Of a DNA stretch of 64,000 bases, positions 5,733 to 63,900 are shown in pieces. The DNA is taken from contig MELR01000011.1 in the NCBI GenBank assembly GCA_001767695.1, positions 192-64,191 of the forward strand. Reading direction: 5' to 3'. Source of the stretch: Actinobacteria bacterium RBG_16_68_21. GTDB lineage: Bacteria; Actinomycetota; Acidimicrobiia; Spongiisociales; UBA11373. The translations under genes were made by a program, and so were the position numbers. How positions within the stretch are numbered: position 1 is the stretch's first letter; every line of letters begins with the position of its first letter. The notes beneath the pieces were generated by a model. The model was not told where the DNA came from. It was given only the letters and a program-made list of their open reading frames with translations, and did not search any database.

Positions 5733-8102
5733 TCAGCCTCCCCGCAGCCGGCCGCCGAGGTCGTCCGTGACGCGCGACGATATCGCCCGGCGAATCGGAC
5801 CGAGTTCACCATCCACCATCGTGCGATCGGGTGCCCGAAACGCCAGGCGGACCGCGACACTCTTTCGGCCCGGTCCCAGCGGCTCGCCCCGGAATACGTC
5901 GAATATCGCCAGCGACTCGAGAAACGGCCCTGCCGCGGCGCCCACCGTCGCGAGGAGGGCAGCAGCAGCCACCTCCTCGGCCAGATCGAACGCCAGGTCG
6001 AACACCACCGGCGGGTATGCGCTGGGCATGATGAAGGGTGCGGGGGCCGGTGCCTCGAGCGAGGCCAGATCGAACTCCCCCACGACCACCCGGTTCTCGA
6101 GATCCCAGGCGGCCGCCACCAGAGGATCGATCTCCCCGACACTCCCGATCCGGCGGCCGTCGACCTCGAGAAACGCCGCCCTCCCGGGATGCAGCCCCGG
6201 CACCGCCGCCTGAACGATGGTCGCCTGGTGCCCCAGCGCGGTGAGAAGCACTTCGGCGACTCCGGCGGCGTCACCCGCCTCGTAGTCGCCTCCGCTCCGT
6301 CCCCTGCGGGCGCCTGTGGCGGCAAAGGCGAGATGCCTCGGCTGCTCGGGAAGGACGCCCTCGCCCCGGAGAAACACCGACCCGACCTCGAAGAGCGCAA
6401 CGTCTGGACGGTTGCGCTGTACGTTTCGCCGCAATCCGTCGAGCAGCCCGGGCAGCAGCGTGGTGCGCAGGAACTCCTGTTCCTCGTTCAGCGGATTGCG
6501 CAGCCGGATCGGACGGCTGCGGGGATCGTCGGGAGCGAGGCGCAGCCCCTCCAGCGACCTGGCGGCGATGAAATCAAAGGACAGGATCTCGAAGAATCCC
6601 GCGCCCACCATCGCCATGCGGGCCATCCGCAGCATGTTCTGCAGGGGACCGAGCCCGCCACCCTGGCCGCTCACGAGGCGCGAAGGGAAGTTGTCATAGC
6701 CGTGGAGGCGAGCGATCTCCTCGATCAGGTCGGCCGGGCGGGTCACGTCGGGACGGAAGGAGGGCACGACCACCTGCAACGGATTGCCGCCCTCCACCGC
6801 GAACCCGAGGCGTCGCAGGTAGCCCGCCTGCTCGGCGCCGGCGATATCCGCACCGAGCAGCCGGCCGGCTTCGGAGACCGGCAGGGCGATCTCCACGCTC
6901 TGGTGGGGCCGGGGATGGGCGTCCACGAAGCCTCCCACCACACCGCCCCCCGCCACCTCGACCATCAGCGACGCGGCCCGCGCCGAAGCAGCCGGAGGGA
7001 GCTCCGGGTCCACCCCTCGTTCGAACCGGCTCACGGCCTCGGTGCGCAGGCCATGCCGCTTGCCGCTGAGCAGCACCCGGGTGGGCTCGAAGTGGGCCAC
7101 CTCGATGAGCACCCGGGTCGTGGCCGCCGACACCTCCGAGTCGCCTCCTCCCATGATTCCCGCCAGGCCGAGCGGCTCGTCGACGCCGGCGATCACGAGA
7201 TCCTCGGCAGAGAGCGAGCGCGCCACGCCGTCCAGCGTCGTAAGCGGCTCTCCAGCCCGGGCGAGACGCACCACGATCGTCTCGTCGGTGATTCGATCGA
7301 GGTCGAAGGCGTGAAGCGGCTGCCCCAGCTCGAGCATCACGTAGTTGGTGACGTCGACCACGTTGCTGATCGGCCGTACACCGGCGTCGCGCAATCGCAG
7401 CCTCATCCACAGCGGGGAAGGCCCCACCTGGACTCCCCGCACCTCTCGGGCGGTGAAGCGGGTGCACCGTTCGGGCTCCTCGATGATCACCCGTGCCGCG
7501 GTGGCCCCCTCCTCGGAGAAGACCGCGGTGGGGATGCGGACCGGCAGCTCATAGAAGGCGCCCAGCTCGCGCGCCAGGCCGTGGATCGACATGGCGTCCG
7601 GTCGATTGGGCGTGATCGACAGGTCGAAGATCGCGTCTGGGTAGGGCAGCGTCCCGGCGAAGTCCGTGCCCGGCGCGGCGTACCCATCGGGTAGCACCAG
7701 GATCCCGCCCTTCTCCTCTCCGAGGTCCATCTCGATCTCGGAGCAGATCATTCCCGGGGACATGACTCCCCGGACGGGCTTCTTCCCGATCGTGATGCCG
7801 CCGGGGAGCACCGCCCCCACCCGGGCGTAGGCGACGGTCGCCCCCTCGCCAAAGTTCCAGGCTCCGCACACGACGTCGATCGGCTCGCCGCCATCGTCGA
7901 GTGTGGCGATCCTCACCTTGTCGGCAGCCGGATGGGGCTTGATCGCAAGCACTCGCGCCACCACGACGCCGCTGAAGCTTGCCTCCCTGCGCTCGATGCC
8001 CTCCACCTCGATGCCGAGATCGGACAACACCCCGGCGACGACCTCCGCGTCGTTAGTGGGCAGGTCGACGAACTCCTTGATCCAGCGCAGCGAGGCCTTC
8101 AT
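5733..8102 (-). CDS. pheT: phenylalanyl-tRNA synthetase beta subunit
   Basis: Starts MKASLRWIKEFVDLP (tRNA-binding/B3-4 domains), typical PheT N-terminus; about 789 aa; the upstream ORF extension is spurious. Confidence 0.9.
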   Translation of the reverse strand: MKASLRWIKEFVDLPTNDAEVVAGVLSDLGIEVEGIERREASFSGVVVARVLAIKPHPAADKVRIATLDDGGEPIDVVCGAWNFGEGATVAYARVGAVLPGGITIGKKPVRGVMSPGMICSEIEMDLGEEKGGILVLPDGYAAPGTDFAGTLPYPDAIFDLSITPNRPDAMSIHGLARELGAFYELPVRIPTAVFSEEGATAARVIIEEPERCTRFTAREVRGVQVGPSPLWMRLRLRDAGVRPISNVVDVTNYVMLELGQPLHAFDLDRITDETIVVRLARAGEPLTTLDGVARSLSAEDLVIAGVDEPLGLAGIMGGGDSEVSAATTRVLIEVAHFEPTRVLLSGKRHGLRTEAVSRFERGVDPELPPAASARAASLMVEVAGGGVVGGFVDAHPRPHQSVEIALPVSEAGRLLGADIAGAEQAGYLRRLGFAVEGGNPLQVVVPSFRPDVTRPADLIEEIARLHGYDNFPSRLVSGQGGGLGPLQNMLRMARMAMVGAGFFEILSFDFIAARSLEGLRLAPDDPRSRPIRLRNPLNEEQEFLRTTLLPGLLDGLRRNVQRNRPDVALFEVGSVFLRGEGVLPEQPRHLAFAATGARRGRSGGDYEAGDAAGVAEVLLTALGHQATIVQAAVPGLHPGRAAFLEVDGRRIGSVGEIDPLVAAAWDLENRVVVGEFDLASLEAPAPAPFIMPSAYPPVVFDLAFDLAEEVAAAALLATVGAAAGPFLESLAIFDVFRGEPLGPGRKSVAVRLAFRAPDRTMVDGELGPIRRAISSRVTDDLGGRLRGG

Positions 8103-11997: not shown

Positions 11998-12029
11998 CCG
12001 GCGACGTTACTAGGAGGCCGCTTCGCGGC

Positions 12030-12100
12030 CCGCAATTGGCAATTGGCAACCAGTAATTCGCGTCGAAGGGGTTGTCTAACTGGAAATCTGGAAACTGGAG
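12030..12100. repeat. Heptamer tandem-repeat spacer (locus A): (GCAATTG)2-3 then CTGGAAAT-CTGGAAA-CTGGAG
   Basis: gcaattggcaattggcaacc (12032-12050) and ctggaaatctggaaactggag (12079-12099), between ribH stop and rnhB start. Confidence 0.8.
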
Positions 12101-28945: not shown

Positions 28946-29000
28946 GGCTGAAGACTAGGTAAGCCTGCCGCGCAGAGCCCCCGTGGGGCGATCCGCAGTC

Positions 29001-29025
29001 GGCAATTGGCAATTGGCAATCGGCA
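29001..29025. repeat. Heptamer tandem repeat (locus B): (GGCAATT)2-GGCAATC-GGCA
   Basis: ggcaattggcaattggcaatcggca, between PilP-like gene stop (29090) and aroC start (28945). Confidence 0.8.
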
Positions 29026-29089
29026 TCCCCCGGAAGGGTCCGCCCGCAGACCCTCATTCAATCGCGCACCGCGGGTAGTGGGCCGCGGC

Positions 29090-29710
29090 CTATTTGAGGA
29101 TGCTCTGGCCGACCGCCAGGGTGAAGGCGCTCGAGCCGTAGGTGAACACGCCTCCGTTGTCGGTGAGGCTGACCACCTTGAAGTTGGTGGCGAAGGTGTC
29201 CCCTACCCCCACCGTGTAGGTCTGGCCATCGACCTCGACGACCGCCACCTTGCCACCGGCCTCGTCCCGCACCTCGAGCAACATCACCCTGATGCCGTCG
29301 GGGGTGTCGCCGCTCGTCGTCGTCGTGACACCCCCGGTCGTCGTGGTGGTGTCCCCACCCGTCGTCGTGGTGGTCTCCCCTCCGGCCGCGGTGGTCGTGG
29401 TCTCGCCACCGGCCACGGTGGTCGTCGTCTCCCCACCGGCCCCCGTCGTCGTCGTTTCCTCGGTGGGAGTGGTCACCAGGGGCTGGAAGGGATCGCGCGG
29501 CTGGGCGACCTGGTAGTCCCCGGTGAGCCCGATCGGGGCCCCCTGGGCTGCCGAGGTGTCCACCGCCCCGCTGTCCGGTGCGCCGGGGAGCGCGCTCTCG
29601 GCTCCCGTAAAGACCCCGGCCGACGCCATCAGCCATACCGACGCCACCGCGGTGCCCACGAGCAGCAGTGAAACGAATACCGACACCAGGGTTCGCTTGG
29701 CTCCGATCAT
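29090..29710 (-). CDS. type IV pilus assembly protein, PilP-like, with Thr-rich (GGETTTT)n linker
   Basis: From ATG at about 29710 (MIGAKRTLVSVFVSLLLVG, TM anchor); four-fold GGETTTTxA repeat; C-terminal beta-rich domain (GIRVMLLEVRDEAGGKVAVVEVDGQTYTVGVGDTF...); last gene of the pilM-pilN-pilO block. Confidence 0.55.
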   Translation of the reverse strand: MIGAKRTLVSVFVSLLLVGTAVASVWLMASAGVFTGAESALPGAPDSGAVDTSAAQGAPIGLTGDYQVAQPRDPFQPLVTTPTEETTTTGAGGETTTTVAGGETTTTAAGGETTTTTGGDTTTTTGGVTTTTSGDTPDGIRVMLLEVRDEAGGKVAVVEVDGQTYTVGVGDTFATNFKVVSLTDNGGVFTYGSSAFTLAVGQSILK

Positions 29711-33512: not shown

Positions 33513-33974
33513 TTACCAGCCGCCCTGGGCGTAGGCCCCAGGAGCAGCGTCGGGACAGGTGACGCTGAGGTCAGTGGCTCCGTACCACGTTCCAAGTGTC
33601 GAGCTCTCCCAGATGGCGAACGTGTTGCCGGAAGCGGCGGTCCGGGTCAGGCACACGGTGTCCGAGGTGGTGGCGTTCAACTGCAGCGCCACACCGCTCG
33701 CCGGGTTGGCGTTGATCACCGCGTTCGGTTCGAATGCCGTGATGTCCGCGGCGGTCTCGGTGTAGTCGCCGTTGTCCAGCCAGTACGCCTTCTCGGAGAG
33801 AAGGACGTTGCGGATATCGCTCTGGGCAGAACGATCCTGCGCCGACTTGCGGAACCCGAGGAACGAGGGGATGGCAATGGCGATGAGAACTGCAATGATC
33901 ATCACCACGACCATCAGCTCGATGAGCGTGAACCCTTCGTCGCCCTTAAGGCCACGTCGGATGGTCTTCATCAT
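33513..33974 (-). CDS. pilA: type IVa major pilin PilA
   Basis: 153 aa from ATG ATG at 33974 with GGAGG RBS: MMKTIRRGLKGDEG|FTLIELMVVVMIIAVLIAIAIPSF, canonical prepilin leader/N-methyl-Phe/E5 N-terminus; C-terminal Cys pair (C..C). Confidence 0.88.
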   Translation of the reverse strand: MMKTIRRGLKGDEGFTLIELMVVVMIIAVLIAIAIPSFLGFRKSAQDRSAQSDIRNVLLSEKAYWLDNGDYTETAADITAFEPNAVINANPASGVALQLNATTSDTVCLTRTAASGNTFAIWESSTLGTWYGATDLSVTCPDAAPGAYAQGGW

Positions 33975-34104: not shown

Positions 34105-34153
34105 GACCTTCGACCTTGGACCTTGGACCTTGGACCTTGGACCTTGGACCTTG
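34105..34153. repeat. Heptamer tandem repeat (locus C, part 1): ACCTTCG + (ACCTTGG)6; on the pilA-coding strand (CCAAGGT)6
   Basis: accttcgaccttggaccttggaccttggaccttggaccttggaccttgg, perfect 7-nt period, about 130-180 nt upstream of the pilA start. Confidence 0.9.
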
Positions 34154-34200
34154 GAGAGACGTTCGCGAACGGTCCGGAGTCCCGAGGCGCATCGCCCGAC

Positions 34201-34248
34201 AGCGGGAGAGCGGCCAGCGGAAAGCGGGCAGCCGGCAGCGGGCAGCGA
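34201..34248. repeat. Heptamer-periodic array (locus C, part 2): AGCGGGA GAGCGGC CAGCGGA AAGCGGG CAGCCGG CAGCGGG CAGCGAC
   Basis: Seven in-register degenerate heptamers (consensus cAGCGGG) abutting the pilC stop codon (34249). Confidence 0.75.
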
Positions 34249-41180: not shown

Positions 41181-43808
<2,628 letters not shown>

Positions 43809-43906
43809 TGCAGGGTTCGAGGGTGGCGCATCGTGGGAAGGGTAGTTGGACCCGGGAGAGCGGCACGCGCGACGTCTGATGCGGTCGGGTCGGCCGCGGC
43901 CGGCGG

Positions 43907-44053
43907 CGATGAGCGATGGGAGATGGGCGTGACGCGATTAGCAGCTGGCGATTAGCGATGCGCAATTGGCAATTAGCCGCCTGCCCGGCGCGACTCTTGC
44001 GGGTTGCGGGCAGCGGGCAGCGGGTTGCGGGTTGCGGGCAGCGGGCAGCGGGT
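43907..44053. repeat. 147-bp array of about 21 in-register degenerate heptamers (locus D): GCGATGG GAGATGG GCGTGAC GCGATTA GCAGCTG GCGATTA GCGATGC GCAATTG GCAATTA ... (TTGCGGG/CAGCGGG)8
   Basis: Strict 7-nt register across the whole alaS-rarA spacer; ends 2 nt before the rarA stop codon. Confidence 0.85.
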
Positions 44054-44055
44054 GC

Positions 44056-45399
44056 CTACTCCCCCGGCTCTCTTCCTTCCCGTCCCATGCGGCGGTCGAT
44101 CTCGGCGAGACGCTCGGCGGTGGCCGCCTCGGCCCCGTGGCGCGACGGCCGGTAGAGGATCGACCCGGCGGCATCGTCCGGCAGGTACTGCTGGGCGACC
44201 ACCCCTCCGGGATGATCATGAGGATACCGGTAGCCGACGCCGTGCCCCAGCTGCGCCGCTCCCCGATACCCGGTGGAGCGCAGGTGGGGCGGCACCTCGG
44301 CGCCTGGGGTCGTCTCGACCGCCTCCCGCGCCGCCATGATCGTCCGTCCGATCGAGTTCGATTTCGGCGCCGTCGCCAGGTACAGGGCGGCATGATGCAG
44401 GGCGTAGTTCGCCTCGGGGAGGCCGACAAAGGCGAGCGCCTCGGCGGCGGCGACGGCGACCAGCAAAGCCCGGGAGTCGGCCAGGCCGACATCCTCGGAG
44501 GCGAGGATCACCATCCGCCTGGCGATGAACTCCGGATCCTCACCGGCGACGAGCATGGTCTCCAGCCAGTAGGCGGCCGCATCGGGATCGGAGCCGCGCA
44601 GGCTCTTGATGAACGCCGAGATCACGTCGTAGTGCTGGTCGCCTCCCTTGTCGTAGCGCACCACCCGGCGCTGCAGGGCCTCGGTCACCGCCGCCTCGTC
44701 GATCGCCTCCGACCCCCGGCCGGCGGAGATCACCGCCGCCATCTCGAGGGCGTTCAGCGCCAGCCGGGCGTCACCTCCGGACCGCTCGGCGAGCAGATCG
44801 CGCGCCGCGGATTCGATCGCCCGCGGCTCGGAGATCCCTCGCTCCGGGTCGGTCACCGCCGCCTCGATCAGCCCGGCGATCTCAAGGGGGCTCAGCGGCT
44901 CGAGGCGGAAGAGGGTGCTACGCGAGATGAGCGGCGAGTTCACTTCGAAGAATGGGTTCTCGGTGGTCGCCCCCACCAGGATGACCGTGCCGTTCTCCAC
45001 CCCCGGCAGCAGGGCGTCCTGCTGGCTCTTGGAGAAACGGTGGATCTCGTCGAGGAAGAGGACGGTGCGCCGCTCGTCCTGCTCGAGGCGCCGCGTCGCC
45101 CGCTCCAGCACTTCGCGGACGTCCTTGACCCCGGCAGAGGTGGCCGACAGGGCCTCGAAGGCGGCCGCCGATTCCGAGGCGACCAGTCGGGCGAGGGTGG
45201 TCTTTCCCGTGCCCGGTGGCCCCCAGAGGATCATGGAGAGCGGCCGGCCGGCGCGCACCATCGTCGCAAAGGCGGCGCCGGTGGCCAGCAGGTGCCGCTG
45301 GCCGACGACCTCGTCCAGCGTCCGGGGCCGCATCCTGGCGGCGAGGGGTTCGGCGGCTGCTCGCCGCGCCTCTCGTTCGGCCCCGAAGAGGTCGTCCAT
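44056..45399 (-). CDS. rarA: replication-associated recombination protein A (RarA/MgsA AAA+ ATPase)
   Basis: Walker A GPPGTGKTTLA, Walker B LFLDEIHRF, sensor motifs, MgsA C-terminal domains. Confidence 0.88.
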   Translation of the reverse strand: MDDLFGAEREARRAAAEPLAARMRPRTLDEVVGQRHLLATGAAFATMVRAGRPLSMILWGPPGTGKTTLARLVASESAAAFEALSATSAGVKDVREVLERATRRLEQDERRTVLFLDEIHRFSKSQQDALLPGVENGTVILVGATTENPFFEVNSPLISRSTLFRLEPLSPLEIAGLIEAAVTDPERGISEPRAIESAARDLLAERSGGDARLALNALEMAAVISAGRGSEAIDEAAVTEALQRRVVRYDKGGDQHYDVISAFIKSLRGSDPDAAAYWLETMLVAGEDPEFIARRMVILASEDVGLADSRALLVAVAAAEALAFVGLPEANYALHHAALYLATAPKSNSIGRTIMAAREAVETTPGAEVPPHLRSTGYRGAAQLGHGVGYRYPHDHPGGVVAQQYLPDDAAGSILYRPSRHGAEAATAERLAEIDRRMGREGREPGE

Positions 45400-47189
45400 C
45401 AGCCGTCCGGCGAGTCCGTGGCGAGCGCCTCCCGTACGTCGGGCCGCAGGTCGATCCCCAGTTCGACCAGTTGGAGCTCATCGACCGCGCTGGGAGAGTT
45501 GGTCATCGGGTCGTAACCGCTCTGGGTCTTGGGAAACGGCATGACCTCGCGGATGTTCGGCTCGTTCTGGAGGATCATCACCAGTCGATCGACGCCGACG
45601 GCGAACCCGGCGTGGGGCGGCGTGCCGTAACGCAACGCCCGCATGAACCATCCGAAGCGCGACTCGGCTTCCCGGTCGGAGATGCCGAGTACGTCGAAGA
45701 CCTCCTTCTGTACGCGGGGGTCGTGAATTCGTTCGCTCCCCGATCCCAGCTCCACCCCGTTGAGCACCAGGTCGTAGGCTCGGGACAGTGCCTCGGCGGG
45801 ATGGTCGCGCATCTCGGTGATGTCGTACGGGGCGGTGAACGGGTGATGCTCCGGCGACAAGCTGCCGTCGTCGCCCACCGCGAACACCGGGAAGTCGGTG
45901 ACCCAGAGAAAGCGCAGCTCGTCGTGGCCCTCGGGTCGTCCCAGGTCGAGCCGCAGTGCGCCGAGAACCAGCCTGGTGACCTTGGGGCGATCGCCCACGA
46001 TCAGCAGGAGATCGCCCGGGGAGGCCTGCATCGCGCTGACAAGCGCCGCCTGTTCCTCGTCCCCGAGGAACTTGGCGATCGGGGATCGCAGCGTCCCGTC
46101 GTCCTCGACGACGATCCACACCAGGCCGCGCGCTCCGAGGTCGCGAGCCCGCTCCACCAGGGCATCGAGCGCCGACCGGGAGAGGTCGCGCCGACCGGCG
46201 TCGATCCCTGCCACCAGGCCTCCGGCGGCGAGCACATCGGCGAAGGCCCTGAAACCCGAGCCGGCGAACACATCGGACAGCTCGACGAGCTCCATGCCGA
46301 AACGGAGGTCCGGTTTATCGGTCCCGAAGCGGGCCATCGATTCCGCCCAGGTGAGCCGGGGGAAAGGCGCGGGGATCTCGATACCCCGCAGCGCGCGGGC
46401 CACCGCGGCCACCGCCGGCTCCAGTGCGGCGAACACGTCTTCGCGACCCCAGAACGCGCCCTCGATGTCGAGTTGGGTGAACTCGATCTGGCGGTCGGCG
46501 CGGAAGTCCTCGTCGCGGTAGCACCGGGCGATCTGGTAGTAGCGCTCCACCCCACCCACCATCAGCAGCTGCTTGAACAGCTGCGGTGACTGCGGAAGGG
46601 CATAGAACGAGCCCTGACGCAGCCTGCTGGGCACCAGTACGTCCCGGGCGCCCTCCGGGGTGGACTTCACCAGGGTGGGGGTCTCCACCTCGAGGAACCC
46701 CTGATCGACCATGGCGGTGCGCATCGCGGCGATGGCCCGCGATCGCGCCACCAGGTTGGCGGCCATCCGCGGCCGGCGCAGGTCGAGATACCGGAACTCC
46801 AGACGCCGCCCCTCGTCGACATCGGCGCGGTCGTCGATCTGGAACGGCAGCGGCTCGGATGGGGAGAGCACACGCAGCTCGGTGACGGCGACCTCGACCT
46901 CCCCGGTGGGAAGGTCGGGGTTGATCGTGCCCTCCGGACGCTTGCGAACCAACCCCGAAAGGGCGATGCAATACTCGTCGCGCAGAACGTCGGCGACCGT
47001 GCCCACTGCCGGGTTCTCCTCCGGGTTGATCACCGCCTGAATCCGGCCCGAGGCGTCGCGCAGGTCGATGAACACCACTCCCCCGTGATCGCGCCGGGTC
47101 GCCACCCAACCGGCGAGCTTCACATCCGTGCCGGCGTCGGACGCCCGCAACTCCCCGGCCCGCGCACTCCTCAGCGACGCCTGATCCAC
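45399..47189 (-). CDS. aspS: aspartyl-tRNA synthetase
   Basis: N-terminal OB anticodon-binding domain (KLAGWVATRRDHGGVVFIDLRD), class II motifs 1-3, GAD insertion; GTG at 47189 preceded by GGGAGG lies inside the last codons of hisS (19-nt overlap). Confidence 0.85.
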   Translation of the reverse strand: MDQASLRSARAGELRASDAGTDVKLAGWVATRRDHGGVVFIDLRDASGRIQAVINPEENPAVGTVADVLRDEYCIALSGLVRKRPEGTINPDLPTGEVEVAVTELRVLSPSEPLPFQIDDRADVDEGRRLEFRYLDLRRPRMAANLVARSRAIAAMRTAMVDQGFLEVETPTLVKSTPEGARDVLVPSRLRQGSFYALPQSPQLFKQLLMVGGVERYYQIARCYRDEDFRADRQIEFTQLDIEGAFWGREDVFAALEPAVAAVARALRGIEIPAPFPRLTWAESMARFGTDKPDLRFGMELVELSDVFAGSGFRAFADVLAAGGLVAGIDAGRRDLSRSALDALVERARDLGARGLVWIVVEDDGTLRSPIAKFLGDEEQAALVSAMQASPGDLLLIVGDRPKVTRLVLGALRLDLGRPEGHDELRFLWVTDFPVFAVGDDGSLSPEHHPFTAPYDITEMRDHPAEALSRAYDLVLNGVELGSGSERIHDPRVQKEVFDVLGISDREAESRFGWFMRALRYGTPPHAGFAVGVDRLVMILQNEPNIREVMPFPKTQSGYDPMTNSPSAVDELQLVELGIDLRPDVREALATDSPDG

Positions 47190-48400
47190 TTCGCGACCTC
47201 CCGCGCATCGACCGACGACTCGGCGCCGGATCTCAAGTCCTTCATGGTCACCCGGCCCGACTCCCACTCCTCGCCGACCACTGCGGCCGTTGCTGCCCGG
47301 CGCCGATCCGCCGCCCGGAACTGCGCCTTGACCGACTTGTCACCCAGATCCAGGTCGACGCGAAGACCCTCGGCCCGCAACGAGCGCACCAGCTCGAGGG
47401 CGATGGTCCGACGGCCGGCATCGGCCGCCACCACGAACACGTCGAGCACCGCCTCCTCGTCGCCGGCGGGCATGGCGAGAACGATCCGATCGACCCCCAT
47501 CGCCAGGCCCACACCGGGAACCTCGGGGCCGCCGAGCATGCCGGCGAGCGGGTCGTAGCGCCCTCCGCCGCCGAGCGAGGCCTGGGCGGCCTGGTACGAG
47601 GCCGACTGGTATTCGAACACGGTCCGGTTGTAGTAGTCGAGCCCCCGGACCAGCCGCGGCTCCTCCTGATGTGGGATCGCCATCGCGTCCAGGCCGGCCC
47701 GCACCGCGGCGATGTGGCCGGCGGCGGCGGGACTCAGGTGGCCGGCGGGCGTCGGGGCGTCGGCAAGCACGGCGGCATCGGCCTTGCTGTCGAGCACCCG
47801 CAACGGGTTGGCGGCGATACGCCGCCGGGCGTCTGCGGTCAGCTCCCCGGCGCGTTCGGTGAGGAAGGCTGCGAGCAGTTCCCGATAGGCGGCCCGGTCG
47901 GCGGGATCACCGATCGAGTTGAGCAGGACGACCGCATCGGTGATCCCCACCGCCTCCAGCAGACGAAAGCCGATCTCGATGACCTCGACGTCGGCATCCG
48001 GCGATGGCTCGCCGATGTACTCCACCCCCACTTGGTGGAACTGCCGCCGCCGTCCCGCCTGGGGTTGCTCGTAGCGGAACATGGGGCCGGCGTAGGCCAC
48101 CTTGAACACCGCCGAGGAGCCTCCCTGCAGGTAGGCGCGCACCACCGAGGCGGTCGCCTCGGGCCGGAGGGTCACCGAACGGCCTCCCTTGTCCTCGAAG
48201 GTGTACATCTGCTTCTCGACGACCTCGGTCTCCGCCCCGACCCCCCGGGAGAACAGCTCGGTGGCTTCGAACATGGGGGTGATCACCAGTCCGTAACCGA
48301 ATCGCTCGGCGAGATCGTCAAAGGCGCGCAGCAGCACCCGCCACCGATCCGAGGCGGGCGGCAGGATGTCGTCGGTGCCCTTGGGGGGGCGAGGGATCAC
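47171..48400 (-). CDS. hisS: histidyl-tRNA synthetase
   Basis: MIPRPPKGTDDILP..., class II motifs, HisA/HisB histidine-binding motifs, C-terminal anticodon-binding domain; 409 aa. Confidence 0.9.
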   Translation of the reverse strand: MIPRPPKGTDDILPPASDRWRVLLRAFDDLAERFGYGLVITPMFEATELFSRGVGAETEVVEKQMYTFEDKGGRSVTLRPEATASVVRAYLQGGSSAVFKVAYAGPMFRYEQPQAGRRRQFHQVGVEYIGEPSPDADVEVIEIGFRLLEAVGITDAVVLLNSIGDPADRAAYRELLAAFLTERAGELTADARRRIAANPLRVLDSKADAAVLADAPTPAGHLSPAAAGHIAAVRAGLDAMAIPHQEEPRLVRGLDYYNRTVFEYQSASYQAAQASLGGGGRYDPLAGMLGGPEVPGVGLAMGVDRIVLAMPAGDEEAVLDVFVVAADAGRRTIALELVRSLRAEGLRVDLDLGDKSVKAQFRAADRRRAATAAVVGEEWESGRVTMKDLRSGAESSVDAREVAKWIRRR

Positions 48401-53837: not shown

Positions 53838-55489
53838 GGGCACCACCCGGAGATGCTGGTGGACAGGTCTTTCTTCTTCGAGATCGACACCGTCTTCTCG
53901 CCGAGGACGTTGCCGTCGGCCAGGCACCGCTTGGCGACGTCGAATGCGCCGGCGTAGTCGACGAAGCTCGCCTCGCCCTGGTAGTTGGGCGGTAGCACGG
54001 TCCACGGTCCGGAGCCGTGAGGACGGTAGAGGAACTCCGCCCGGTCTCCGGCACGCAGGATCATGGTTCCCATGTTCCTCGGTCGCTCCAGACGGAGATC
54101 GATCGTGTTGTCGTCGTCGGGATCGAAGGTCATGTCGTCGGGACCGTGGCCCCAGATCGTCGAGGCAACCACCGTGTAGTCGACATTCCGGATGAGGCTG
54201 TATGTGCTCTGCCCGTGATCGTCCGTGGTGAGCACGATGGTCGGCTTCCCCGGTGCGGTGATAGTGAGGGTCGCGCCGTGGACCACCCGATTGGTGCTGT
54301 CCTTCACCGTGAACGTGACCAGGTTGGTGTTGGCGGGGACCGTGGTCGTGGTGGTGGTCGCGGCCACGGTGGTCGTCGTCGCCCCCGGCTGCGTGGTCGT
54401 GGTCGTTGCTCCCGGCTGCGTGGTCGAGGTGGTGGAGGTCGTCGTGGTCGTCGAGGGTCCGATCGGCTGCATGTGCACCGTGAGGTCGTGCACCGAATCC
54501 GGGTAGCCGCCGGGGATGTTGACCGAGGACAGCGTCCAGGTCTGATAGCCGGAGGCGGTCACGGTCAGGTCGTAGGCGTCGGGGATCAGCCCTGTGGCGG
54601 TGAGCACTCCCGGCGCCAGCGTCACGGTCTGATTAATCACCAGATTGTTGAAGGCGAGCTGCGGCGACGCCACAACCTGGCCGGTGTAGAAGTCGACCAC
54701 CGTGACCCGGAGCGTGGCGGGGCGATACACCCGCAACGTGGTCTCGGTCAAGGTGCCCGCGGTCACGTGCAGGCGGTCGTTGCCCGCCAGGACGTCGTCG
54801 GGGTGGATGATCCACCCGTCAGCGTCCTCGAGGGTGACCGTGTAATCGGCCGGCGGGATCGCCGGGAATACCTGCTCGTCGGCGTAGAGGGCCGAGGAGA
54901 TCGGAGCCGCCGGGGACGCCTGGATCTTGAGCGAGGGGAGGTCGTGGCTGCTGGGGGCGAACGGCTCGTAGGCGGCGAGGTACACCCGGGCGTTGGCGAT
55001 CCCCTCGTGGGCGCCGACGCTGCGCGGCGAGACGATGGTCTCCATGACCACCGGGTCGGCCTCCCGCCCCGCCGCGGTGACCGTGACCGTGACCACCTTG
55101 TAGTCCACTCCCGGGTCCCAGGAGCCCTGGACCCCGTCACCCCCCTGGGGGATGACATCGAGTCCGGTCACCGACCCGGCGTATCTGACGTCGAGGGCGA
55201 CGTCGTAGGACCGGCCTTCGACGGTCACCACGTGATGAGCGGTGAGGACGCCACCGGGGGTCCGCCCCGGCAGTCCGATTTCCTCGTACGGGAGGGCGCG
55301 CAGCGACTCGATCTCCGCCTGAGCGAGGTTCTCGGCCACCGAGATCACCCGGGCGTCGCCGATGCGCTGCAGGGATGCCACCACCGGTTGAATGGTGAGC
55401 GCGATGGCGACGGCGAGGATGGTCACCGCCACCATGGCCTCGACGATCGTGAATCCTTCCTCCTCGCGGAGGCGGCGCAGCGTGGTCAT
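53834..55489 (-). CDS. large minor pilin / pilus-associated adhesin-like protein with Thr-rich linker, 551 aa
   Basis: MTTLRRLREEEG|FTIVEAMVAVTILAVAIAL (prepilin signature), beta-rich domains, Thr/Pro linker TTTTTSTTSTTQPGATTTTTQPGATTTTVAATTTTTTVP, C-terminal domain ending in Cys. Confidence 0.65.
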   Translation of the reverse strand: MTTLRRLREEEGFTIVEAMVAVTILAVAIALTIQPVVASLQRIGDARVISVAENLAQAEIESLRALPYEEIGLPGRTPGGVLTAHHVVTVEGRSYDVALDVRYAGSVTGLDVIPQGGDGVQGSWDPGVDYKVVTVTVTAAGREADPVVMETIVSPRSVGAHEGIANARVYLAAYEPFAPSSHDLPSLKIQASPAAPISSALYADEQVFPAIPPADYTVTLEDADGWIIHPDDVLAGNDRLHVTAGTLTETTLRVYRPATLRVTVVDFYTGQVVASPQLAFNNLVINQTVTLAPGVLTATGLIPDAYDLTVTASGYQTWTLSSVNIPGGYPDSVHDLTVHMQPIGPSTTTTTSTTSTTQPGATTTTTQPGATTTTVAATTTTTTVPANTNLVTFTVKDSTNRVVHGATLTITAPGKPTIVLTTDDHGQSTYSLIRNVDYTVVASTIWGHGPDDMTFDPDDDNTIDLRLERPRNMGTMILRAGDRAEFLYRPHGSGPWTVLPPNYQGEASFVDYAGAFDVAKRCLADGNVLGEKTVSISKKKDLSTSISGWCP

Positions 55490-58307: not shown

Positions 58308-58333
58308 CCGGCGATTGTAGGAAGACGGCAGTC

Positions 58334-58422
58334 AGCATTTAGCAATTGGCGATTGGCGATTGGCGATCAGCGATTAGCGGCCAGCACGACTGTGCCTTGC
58401 CGGTGACGGGCGACGGGTGACG
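58334..58422. repeat. Heptamer-periodic array (locus E): AGCATTT AGCAATT (GGCGATT)2 GGCGATC AGCGATT AGCGGCC ... CGGTGAC GGGCGAC GGGTGAC GG
   Basis: In-register 7-nt periodicity across the secF-apt spacer; ends 6 nt before the secF stop codon. Confidence 0.8.
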
Positions 58423-58428
58423 GAGCGG

Positions 58429-59499: not shown

Positions 59500-61250
59500 T
59501 TCGCCACCTCCCCCGGCGCGCCGGTGGCTCCCCTGATGCTGAACGCGCCACCCTCACCGAACCTGGTCTGGGCGACGAGGGCGACCGCGGGACGGGTGTA
59601 GAAGACAGCCACCAGGACGTCGGTGACCGTGGCGACGCCGAGGGCCAGGGCGAATCCCTTCACCGATCCGGCGGCGAGGAAGAACAACAGCACCGCGGCG
59701 GTGAAAGAGACCGTATCGGCGGTGATGAGGGTGTGGAACGCCCGCGTGAAGCCCTGGTCGATGGCGGCGCGCAGCGACCGGCCCTTGTGGACCTCTTCCT
59801 TGATCCGCTCGAAATACACGATGTAGGAGTCGGCGGTGATGCCCACCGAGACGATCACGCCGGCGACCCCGGCCAGCGTCAACGTCACCCCCGACCAGGC
59901 ACCGAGCAGCGAGAAGATCACCAGCACCGTGCTGCCGAACACGAAGAGGCCGATGACGTTGATCAGCCCGAGCGCCCGGTAGTAGAGGATCATCGCCAGG
60001 GCCACCAGGATCAGTCCGGCTACTCCGGCGACGAGGCCGGCCTTCAGCGAGTCGGAGCCGAGCGTCGCCGACACCGACTGCACGCTCGACTGGGTGAAGG
60101 CAACCGGCAAAGCGCCGTACTTGAGCACGACTGCCAGGTCGTTGGCTTCCTTCTCCTGATTGTCGGAGTTGCCCAGGGTGATCACTGCCGAGTCGCCCAC
60201 GATCCCGGTGGCCGGATCGACGTCCGAGGCGATCTGGGGAGCGGACTGGATCACCTCGTCGAGGACGATGGCAAACTGCCGCTGCGGATCACCGGTGGGG
60301 AACTGCGCCAGTTCCTTGGTGGTCTGGGTGAACTTGGCCGCTCCCTCCGCGTTGAAGTTCAACTGGACGATCCAGCTGCCCGCACCGCCCCCACCCCCGA
60401 GCGGGGAACCGCCGCCGCTCGCCGAATACTGAGCCTGCGCGCTCTCGAGGTCGGAGCCGAGCACCCGCGCCACCGACAGGTGGTAGATCGTGCCGCCCTG
60501 GTCGGCCAGGTAGGCGTCGAGGTCGGGAGAGGGATCGGAGGTGACCCCGGTGGTCACGTCGACACAACCCGGTTGGTCCACCTCGTCGCACCAGGTGATC
60601 CCCTCGGGGAGCACGACCCCGGCCTTGGGGTCGAGCGTCGTGGTGGTGGTGTCCCCGGCCACGGTCGTCGTGGTGGTGTCCCCGGCGACGGTCGTCGTGG
60701 TCGTCTCGGCTGCCGCGGTTGTCGTCGTCGCCGCGGTCGTGGTCGTGGTGTCGCCGGCGCTCGTGGTGGTCGTCTCCCCGACACCGGTGGTCGTGGTCTC
60801 CCCGGGCACCGTCGTGGTCGAGGCGTCGGGAAGGGTGGTCGTGGTGGTGGTCGTCTCCGCGACGTTGAGGAACACCGGGCTCAGCCCGGGGATGGGGCCG
60901 ATCTCGAGCACCGGTCGGAACTCGAGAAGACCGGTGGTGCCGACCGCGGCGAGTGCCCGATCGCGGTCGGTGACGCCGGGAAGCTGCACCTCCACCGCCC
61001 GATCGCCGACGATGGTGATCTCGGGTTCCTGGACGTTGCCGAGTGCCTCGATGCGACGCCGCATGATCGCCACCGCCTGCTCCAGCACGTCGGGGGGAGT
61101 CCCCTCCGGGGCATCGAGAACGACGGAGAAGCCTCCCTGCAGGTCGAGGCCCAGCTTGGGTGTGGTGTGCGTGCTCTGGGTGAGGAACAGAAGGCCGAAC
61201 ACGATCACCAGTGTGAGCGTAAGGGTCACCGAGGCGGTGCGGCGTGACAC
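59496..61250 (-). CDS. secD: protein translocase subunit SecD with Thr-rich tandem-repeat insertion in the periplasmic P1 domain
   Basis: 584 aa; SecD N-terminal TM, P1 domain, C-terminal six-TM block (LGLINVIGLFVF...); residues about 125-196 are (G/A)(D/E)TTTTT(V/A)A repeats (coding 60660-60890). Confidence 0.88.
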   Translation of the reverse strand: MSRRTASVTLTLTLVIVFGLLFLTQSTHTTPKLGLDLQGGFSVVLDAPEGTPPDVLEQAVAIMRRRIEALGNVQEPEITIVGDRAVEVQLPGVTDRDRALAAVGTTGLLEFRPVLEIGPIPGLSPVFLNVAETTTTTTTLPDASTTTVPGETTTTGVGETTTTSAGDTTTTTAATTTTAAAETTTTTVAGDTTTTTVAGDTTTTTLDPKAGVVLPEGITWCDEVDQPGCVDVTTGVTSDPSPDLDAYLADQGGTIYHLSVARVLGSDLESAQAQYSASGGGSPLGGGGGAGSWIVQLNFNAEGAAKFTQTTKELAQFPTGDPQRQFAIVLDEVIQSAPQIASDVDPATGIVGDSAVITLGNSDNQEKEANDLAVVLKYGALPVAFTQSSVQSVSATLGSDSLKAGLVAGVAGLILVALAMILYYRALGLINVIGLFVFGSTVLVIFSLLGAWSGVTLTLAGVAGVIVSVGITADSYIVYFERIKEEVHKGRSLRAAIDQGFTRAFHTLITADTVSFTAAVLLFFLAAGSVKGFALALGVATVTDVLVAVFYTRPAVALVAQTRFGEGGAFSIRGATGAPGEVAK

Positions 61251-61604: not shown

Positions 61605-63900
<2,296 letters not shown>

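Follow-up and report, generated by a model that had tools for sequence, protein, structure and literature searches.

A strain-variable heptanucleotide repeat tract in the rarA-alaS spacer of an uncultured actinobacterial lineage

In the 64,000-nt stretch of DNA analyzed here (contig MELR01000011.1, positions 192 to 64,191, Actinobacteria bacterium RBG_16_68_21; hereafter, the window), the intergenic spacer between rarA and alaS harbors a long tract of tandem 7-nt units. This tract is probably a composite, hypermutable heptanucleotide simple-sequence repeat, that is, a variable-number tandem repeat (VNTR), in a dispensable part of the spacer, most likely having no dedicated sequence-specific function. 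With it, Acidimicrobiia gain an example of a class of heptanucleotide repeats that has been described before but whose mechanism is unexplained.

Structure, strain variation and turnover of the tract

The rarA-alaS spacer is 247 bp long (43809-44055), and 147 bp of it (43906-44052) form the tract, which consists of 21 units kept in one register (frame 43906+7n). A preliminary description of this DNA gave the same 21-unit register with coordinates shifted by one base (43907-44053), and the close approach of the array to the rarA stop codon that it noted is real, the gap being 3 nt instead of 2 nt. The register is preserved in an independent re-read and in the autocorrelation: the lag-7 self-identity of the whole tract is 0.64 vs 0.30 +/- 0.04 in shuffled sequences (maximum 0.43, z 9.2), and none of the 2000 dinucleotide-preserving shuffles reached the observed value. 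Tandem Repeats Finder (TRF) reports period 7 for both tract halves, and also periods 21 and 28. On the other hand, the spacer as a whole is not an array, as had been claimed, since the tract covers 60% of it and the 97 bp beside alaS have no 7-nt period (Table 1).

The tract is composed of two sub-arrays. The left one, proximal to alaS, comprises ten degenerate units (GCGATGA, GCGATGG, GAGATGG, GCGTGAC, GCGATTA, GCAGCTG, GCGATTA, GCGATGC, GCAATTG, GCAATTA), a family that recurs in four other spacers of the window. The right one, proximal to rarA, comprises eight perfect units in the order TTGCGGG x2, CAGCGGG x2, TTGCGGG x2, CAGCGGG x2, corresponding to CCCGCTG/CCCGCAA on the minus (gene-sense) strand. 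Here the proposed duplication of a 28-nt super-unit is borne out by TRF (period 28, 2.0 copies, 100% matches, 43997-44053). Three further units join both sub-arrays in register and are read as decayed heptads: three in-phase GC dinucleotides have a probability of about 0.005, given the GC dinucleotide frequency of 0.167 in the spacer.

The number of units differs between strains. A RarA protein identical to that of the window is encoded on contigs from four metagenome assemblies, and the five contigs (the window and L001-L004) were aligned. The same array is present in these four independent assemblies from other samples, hence it is not an assembly artefact. The sense strand reads (CCCGCTG x2 CCCGCAA x2) x2 in the window, L001 and L004, and CCCGCTG x4 CCCGCAA x2 in L002 and L003, which come from different assemblers and samples and lack a 14-nt segment; the flanks of this indel are identical across the five contigs save a few single-base differences. 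This suggests that both forms could be derived from a CTG x2 CAA x2 block via tandem duplication of 28 or 14 nt.

Similar differences are seen elsewhere. In lineage P0006 (RarA 85% identical), a single CCGTCTC unit (7 nt), directly after the rarA stop codon, distinguishes L211 from L213, and in another spacer of the same lineage (GCGAATT)n has 3.3 vs 6.3 copies. In lineage P0002 (88%), L209 carries five more CCGCxGT units (about 35 nt) than L206 and L207. Among contigs encoding identical PilC, three carry 7 units of the (CCAAGGT)n array of the pilC-pilin spacer, whereas L087 carries about 13 and L090 at least 12. We treat these variants as real, since the same ones were recovered by independent assemblies and since the arrays, at 56-91 nt, do not reach the k-mer length indicated by the contig names (k141).

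Some contigs break at such repeats: two from the L086-L090 set terminate inside the (CCAAGGT)n array, and the P0002 contigs L206, L207 and L208 terminate 160-210 nt past rarA, within the repeat-rich spacer. L208 (10761-10971) is wholly unlike L209 beyond the first hairpin, about 57 nt past the stop codon, which suggests that this strain has undergone a rearrangement or insertion, or else that the assembly is broken there. The coincidence of arrays with contig ends is of practical importance for metagenome assemblies, and the arrays are not to be taken as promoters or open reading frames (ORFs). In particular, the plus-strand 79-aa ORF crossing the array (43916-44155) was considered as a real gene and rejected, in agreement with the preliminary description: a Pfam search with ORFs crossing the array gave no matches, the GC content by codon position is 0.66/0.72/0.75 (0.74/0.51/0.89 in rarA), and the 14-nt strain indel would break the frame.

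The rarA-alaS gene order is widely kept in Acidimicrobiia, with spacers between the adjacent genes ranging from overlapping to about 390 bp; in more distant relatives they mostly have no 7-nt period. Where the gap is wider, as in some genomes, it probably contains additional genes. The best AlaS matches of the window (one genome per species searched) are 72-73% identical and come from metagenome-assembled genomes labelled Acidimicrobiia or Actinomycetota. A metagenome scan with RarA yielded nothing closer than 77% among the matches listed, while closer relatives (RarA 85-89% identical) were obtained by protein search. All of these closer relatives have heptad arrays in this spacer, so the proposed comparison of orthologous spacers revealed no ordinary, non-repetitive sequence in them; still, their units (CCGCxGT, GTTTCCA, xAACTGG, CCGTCTC, ATCGCxC) are unrelated to those of the window. 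Thus, the L209 spacer (413 bp) contains CCGCxGT x6.4, GTTTCCA x3.3 and GCTGCCT x3.3; that of L210 (168 bp) five units of xxxCAGC and nine of xAACTGG, with a higher-order period of 28 nt; and those of L211-213 (173-180 bp) CCGTCTC, GTCTGTT and ATCGCxC.

L005 (AlaS 73%) has arrays of CAGTCTT, CTGATGA and CTGATGC. Its decayed xCCCGCx units followed by CGCAAGAGCCGCG align with the window CCCGCAA units and CGCAAGAGTCGCG, the junction CGCAAGAGYCGCG is common to both sequences, and the linker junction CGCAAGAG(T/C)CGCG is also present in L005; hence, a part of the tract is older than the split between the two. The spacers of more distant relatives are 28 bp (L006), 67 bp (L014), 57 bp (L015), 10 bp (L033), 116 bp (L091, weak period) and 211 bp (L104, no period). 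The alaS-proximal end of the non-repetitive part (43809-43905) is the sole spacer portion that can be aligned among relatives. As judged from these sequences, the position of the array persists within the clade, whereas its units are replaced entirely.

Indels of whole units between flanks that are otherwise the same, perfect block duplications beside decayed units and complete unit turnover at a fixed position all point to a replication-associated process, either slipped-strand mispairing or unequal exchange between sister strands, as the likely driver of the evolution of the tract. The tract grows and shrinks in steps of one unit or a few units, with old units decaying via point mutations (the left sub-array and the linker) and new ones expanding (the 28-nt duplication). 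The placement of arrays directly after stop codons would be explained by the relatives' spacers being very short, so that any sequence growing between stop codon and promoter would make up the spacer. At most, the array may be a length-variable, unstructured, C-rich spacer in the 3' untranslated region of rarA. As to repair, Actinobacteria are not known to have MutS/MutL, and their NucS pathway is not known to correct indels.

The surrounding genes are in the minus-strand order hisS, aspS (45399-47267), rarA, the spacer, alaS, ruvX, mltG, in a window with a GC content of about 0.69; the names rarA and alaS given in the preliminary description are correct according to the protein family matches.

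Table 1. Features of the rarA-alaS locus and of other heptad-array spacers in the window
Feature	Position	Strand	Remarks
rarA (replication-associated recombination protein A), upstream gene	44056..45399	-	NCBIfam AAA ATPase/RarA models, E down to 6e-154
rarA stop codon	44056-44058	-	
alaS (alanine-tRNA ligase), downstream gene	41181..43808	-	TIGR00344, E 4e-254, full length from residue 9
Spacer part adjoining alaS, non-repetitive, promoter-proximal	43809..43905	-	97 bp; lag-7 z 1.4
Left, alaS-proximal sub-array, 10 degenerate heptads, GCRATYR type	43906..43975	.	lag-7 identity 0.60 vs 0.27 shuffled, z 5.7; TRF periods 7, 21
Linker, three units read as decayed: GCCGCCT GCCCGGC GCGACTC	43976..43996	.	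GC kept at unit positions 1-2 only
Right, rarA-proximal sub-array, 8 perfect heptads	43997..44052	.	lag-7 identity 0.88, lag-28 identity 1.00
14-nt segment (two TTGCGGG units) missing in L002, L003	44025..44038	.	five-contig alignment
Conserved -10-like hexamer TACCCT, 7 nt before ATG	43839..43844	-	invariant in the window, L209, L210, L213, L005, L091, L006
8-codon mini-ORF MRHPRTLQ* from the putative leaderless ATG	43805..43831	-	TGA overlaps alaS ATG (ATGA)
ribH-rnhB spacer array	12032..12099	.	GCAATTG x2.6, AACTGGA x3
Array upstream of aroC	28992..29028	.	GCAATTG type, about 4 units
pilC-pilin spacer arrays	34105..34247	.	GACCTTG x7.3 (34105-34155); CAGCGGG type x6.7 (34200-34247)
secF-apt spacer arrays	58328..58423	.	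GCRATTR type, about 8 units; GACGGGC x2.7
Array cluster upstream of queA	63779..63899	.	units GGCAATT, TCCGCTA, GCAATTG, GGAAACC, GGCGACT

Sister arrays and possible causes of their recurrence

The preliminary description treated the tract as a singular feature, while at least six spacers of the window contain heptad arrays; the counts for the whole family given below cover the window and fragments of related genomes. TRF yields 12 period-7 rows spread over six intergenic spacers of the window and 0-2 rows for each of the periods 5, 8, 10 and 11; the period-7 rows span 29001-29025 upstream of aroC and 58345-58423 in the secF-apt spacer. When at least 18 matches out of 21 are required for lags 2-15, segments are found at lag 7 (n=4) and lag 14 only. 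All six spacers separate co-directional minus-strand genes, and the array starts 1-6 nt past the upstream stop codon in four of the five spacers whose upstream gene is within the window; for instance, the CAGCGGG-type array stops 1 nt from the pilC stop codon and the GACGGGC array, 5 nt from that of secF. The units vary by locus (GACCTTG, AACTGGA, GGAAACC, GGCGACT, TCCGCTA, GACGGGC, CAGCGGG).

The (CCAAGGT)n array (34105-34155) is situated downstream of pilC, with a type IV pilin gene (33513-33974) following after about 130 nt, and, being variable, could modulate pilin expression. The window also contains related 24/27-nt tandem repeats at 29314-29459, 54325-54456 and 60636-60820 (with a consensus such as GTCGTCGTGGTGGTGTCCCCGGCCACG); they are apparently intracoding and may represent repetitive low-complexity domains of three related proteins.

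Arrays of the same period are found in phage-like contigs from IMG/VR (L175, L176, L184, L185, L205; Mu-like portal, tail protein, Mtd domain), with 9-14 arrays per 9-14 kb and a typical array length of about 4.6 units. Inverted array pairs border intergenic regions in L176 (e.g. 7786-7819 and 7904-7935). The best match of a phage portal from such contigs is 31% identical.

Several of these observations weigh against an origin by slippage without function. The preference for period 7 is left unexplained by slippage, and random slippage does not account for the recurrence of GCAATTG, which occurs ten times on the plus strand, every copy being inside arrays, in five spacers. Moreover, an identical 16-mer, GCAATTGGCAATTGGC, is present in four intergenic copies, all on the plus strand (12032-12047, 29002-29017, 63780-63795, 63824-63839). 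The persistence of arrays at the same spacer across lineages, as well as the phage-like contigs being packed with them, could mean selection rather than neutrality. Finally, of the nine stop-proximal arrays of this clade, eight have a sense strand rich in C and poor in G.

The arrays could also be more than a by-product of slippage, forming a class of cis-elements, flexible in sequence and strict in period, shared by these Acidimicrobiia and some phages and placed directly after stop codons and upstream of leaderless promoters. Such a class would be kept by a factor acting in 7-nt steps (Rho loading, or a protein that polymerises on DNA or RNA), or made by a dedicated process favouring particular units (GCAATTG). 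We consider this unlikely; if it were true, the metagenomic strain series would directly test the preference of bacterial repeats for seven.

Another proposal is that the heptads bind a protein polymerising in 7-bp steps, either an omega-type ribbon-helix-helix repressor or a nucleoid protein, with the GCAATTG/TAATCGC units acting as operators. Omega operators are two or more contiguous 7-bp sites of one consensus bound by a cognate ribbon-helix-helix protein, and the geometry of the arrays fits that of these operators. Besides the 16-mer common to four spacers, it is favoured by the enrichment of CAATTG (12 in the window vs 3.7 expected, with 10 of the 12 inside heptad arrays) and by the location of the GCAATTG/TAATCGC units, 35-150 nt upstream of start codons bearing leaderless promoter signatures. 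However, the distance to the -10 box is scattered (about -14, -37, -57, -75), and the orientation is not fixed, since GCAATTG is on the sense strand in L212/L213 and antisense in the window. The units vary between loci and are wholly different between closer relatives at the same spacer, and no obvious theme or function unites the genes that follow the arrays (rnhB, aroC, alaS, apt-relA, queA, a pilin). Taken together, this makes operators of such a protein quite improbable, and on the last ground we rejected the idea that the GCAATTG-type arrays upstream of rnhB, aroC, alaS, apt-relA and queA define a regulon. A strict strand rule was likewise rejected, as sense-strand C exceeds G in just 20 of the 30 arrays and GCAATTG is found in both orientations relative to genes. 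Exact GCAATTGGCAATTG is absent from the 170 loci scanned.

The presence of common units at many loci might also be due to a dedicated agent that spreads or creates arrays, such as a miniature mobile element ending in heptad arrays, or an enzyme adding 7-nt units. The inverted pairs of L176 (arrays of about 32 nt, 70-130 nt apart) resemble terminal inverted repeats, and the unit repertoires of the window and the phage-like contigs overlap in part (GGTTTCC, CAATCGC, ATCCGC). Still, the array flanks share no homology, strains vary in the number of units and not in the presence or absence of an element, and a scan of viral contigs with the 16-mer gave 35 matches, about the chance level by a rough estimate, some of them in array-dense phage-like contigs. 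No inverted partner or target-site duplication was noted at the window arrays, neither being searched for systematically, and the fold of the spacer RNA contains no long hairpin. We regard such an agent as very improbable, and return to slippage or unequal exchange as the likely source of the arrays.

The alaS promoter and transcription across the spacer

According to the preliminary description, the array must carry the alaS promoter. The sequence comparison places the promoter elsewhere. The only block kept in all seven related spacers aligned is TACCCT-N7-ATG (43844-43829), located in the non-repetitive 97 bp, and many other relatives have TAACCT-N7-9-ATG. In L005 and L091, the ATG of the conserved block is the alaS start codon itself. 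A -10 hexamer just before the start ATG is the usual layout of leaderless actinobacterial mRNAs; hence, the block suggests a putative alaS promoter giving a leaderless transcript. Relative to the start point predicted in this way, the array lies at about 75-222 nt upstream.

In the window, the ATG of the block opens a mini-ORF whose stop codon overlaps the alaS start. The length of this ORF and the stop/start overlap are the same in L209, L210, L213 and L006, with the peptides MRHPRTLQ (window), MCHRWSTR, MRHRRTTR, MRHPVTVR and MHRLEEIQ, respectively, three of which begin with MRH. This conservation suggests that alaS may be translationally coupled to a leaderless mini-ORF. The signal relevant for alaS regulation would then be the conserved leaderless promoter with the mini-ORF, not the repeat. 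Similar layouts are seen at the genes downstream of three other arrays of the window: TANNNT is located exactly 6 nt before the start codon of rnhB (TAACGT, 11998-12020), aroC (TAGTCT, 28946-28965) and apt (TACAAT, 58308-58325), and leaderless transcripts thus seem to be common in this organism. No Shine-Dalgarno sequence was seen in the leaders of these three genes.

If the array carried the promoter, the number of units would tune or switch alaS as in a contingency locus, which is hardly credible. It is true that the array occupies most of the spacer upstream of alaS and that its length is strain-variable. Nevertheless, the conserved TACCCT-N7-ATG is outside the array, about 61 nt downstream of its end, and changes in the number of units would leave the -35/-10 spacing unaltered; no promoter-like site was found in the array itself (a scan of 43700-44200 gave no sigma-70-like site), and alaS is an essential housekeeping gene. 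The array is not needed for alaS expression, since relatives with the same promoter have 10-70 bp spacers lacking it.

The array might instead serve as a 3' insulator of rarA, ending its transcription before the alaS promoter, with the C-rich transcript (CCCGCUG/CCCGCAA) loading Rho and/or a G-quadruplex formed by the template (GGG-N4) x8 blocking RNA polymerase. The sense strand of the right sub-array contains 57% C and 21% G over 56 nt, which ties for the top C-over-G excess among all 56-nt windows of the 64 kb. C exceeds G over the whole 147-nt array as well; a rut site for Rho would be a C-rich, G-poor, unstructured RNA of about 70-80 nt past a stop codon. Consistent with Rho, the spacer lacks predicted RNA structure and intrinsic terminators: the fold of the sense-strand spacer RNA is no more stable than those of shuffled sequences (z +0.52), and the scan of 43700-44200 yielded 0 intrinsic terminators. 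An Rfam search of 43000-45000 gave no covariance-model match at E <= 1, neither T-box nor any other family. The strand skew in eight of the nine stop-proximal arrays also fits this proposal.

As for the G-quadruplex, the right sub-array matches the sequence pattern required (four or more G3 tracts, loop length 1-7 nt), and is a G-rich repeat, d(GGGTTGCGGGCAGC)n, that is a candidate for G-quadruplex DNA. Its motif is the longest and strongest among six on both strands of the window, having 8 GGG tracts with 4-nt loops (44001-44052, plus strand). GGGAATC repeats of the same geometry (G3 and 4-nt loops) fold into G-quadruplexes in vitro (PMC4692102).

Other arrays (GACCTTG, GCGAATT, AACTGGT), however, are not C-rich or have no G tracts, regular G3 tracts being confined to this array among those of the window. 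The non-repetitive part of the spacer is equally C-rich (48% C, 25% G), so the skew belongs to intergenic DNA here and not to arrays. In addition, relatives with 10-70 bp spacers manage without an array, and L209 has post-stop hairpins in its place. Hence, an insulator of this kind is possible, though rather unlikely. The hairpins of L209 (3953-4160, the 88% relative), which follow the rarA stop codon and are absent from the window, are GC-rich (CTCCCCCTC...GGGAGGGGG and CTCCCGCCGGAGGGGGGAGTCCGCCGAAGGCGGGAGGGGG) and may be terminator-like structures.

Relation to known heptanucleotide repeats

Heptanucleotide units are reported to be the most abundant long simple-sequence repeats (LSSRs) in the majority of bacterial genomes, with polymerase slippage as the proposed cause (Mrazek 2007, as summarised in PMC4679880 and PMC4692102). 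The features characteristic of the LSSR/STRR-like heptanucleotide class are all observed here: 7-nt head-to-tail units (z 9.2), six intergenic loci with an excess of period 7, variation of unit numbers between strains, and between species a constant position with a changing sequence. As far as those two summaries describe the repeats of Mrazek, Guo and Shah (2007), common features are intergenic head-to-tail 7-nt units at many loci per genome, the preference of period 7 over other non-multiples of 3 and a sporadic phylogenetic distribution including Actinobacteria; unlike the repeats summarised there, several unit types here share one register, and strain unit indels are visible in metagenomes.

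In the literature searched, no paper joining Acidimicrobiia, tandem repeats and intergenic regions was found. Bacterial heptanucleotide repeats have a record going back decades, with neither the preference for seven nor a function explained, and this locus adds an uncultured actinobacterial lineage to the class. Moreover, it provides a natural series in one spacer, with near-identical strains differing by 1, 2 or 5 units, closer relatives having different units and distant ones having no array, from which rates of turnover could be estimated and slippage be tested against selection.

Other types of known elements differ more strongly. Contingency loci of host-adapted pathogens share the slippage-driven change in copy number, but have 1-5 nt units within ORFs or between the -35 and -10 boxes, while the tract is outside both ORFs and the core promoter. 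Mycobacterial interspersed repetitive units (MIRU-VNTRs) consist of 40-100 bp intercistronic units with small ORFs overlapping the flanking stop and start codons, unlike the 7-nt unit, which is not a multiple of 3 and forms no such ORF. The tract is not an intrinsic terminator either, as there is no GC-rich hairpin with a T run in 43700-44200.

Among heptamers, the TAACTGA repeats described by MacGregor (2015, PMC4679880) in marine Beggiatoaceae, cyanobacteria and Bacteroidetes are similar in being intergenic tandem heptamers in 2-6 copies with one unit at many loci. They are located a few nucleotides upstream of start codons and have one dominant unit, whereas the arrays described here abut stop codons, upstream of promoters, and have many units (PMC4679880). 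The cyanobacterial STRR (short tandemly repeated repetitive) heptanucleotides and the contiguous heptamers of Nostoc PCC 7120 resemble the window arrays in the presence of many different tandem heptamers genome-wide near promoters and start codons, and in reporter constructs the Nostoc heptamer repeats reportedly affected the expression of recF and recO (bioRxiv 10.1101/2022.06.06.494920).

Still, the tract does not belong to the STRR families of heterocystous cyanobacteria, being from another phylum and having other units (GCRATYR, YWGCGGG).

The closest counterparts of the right sub-array are the GGGAATC repeats of Xanthomonas and GGGGAYT of Nostoc (Rehm et al. 2015, PMC4692102), which are also heptads with G3 and a 4-nt loop, in at least 4 copies, located 0-50 bp from a stop codon. 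The units here, GGGTTGC/GGGCAGC, are different in sequence, and their G-rich strand is the template, downstream of the ORF, while for Rehm et al. the coding strand carries most of the stop-proximal repeats (PMC4692102). In Xanthomonas, 90% of the GGGAATC repeats are flanked by the same genes in two species, with highly variable length and sequence and no function found (PMC4692102). As in the rarA-alaS spacer, the position of these repeats is kept between related species, whereas their length and sequence vary (PMC4692102).

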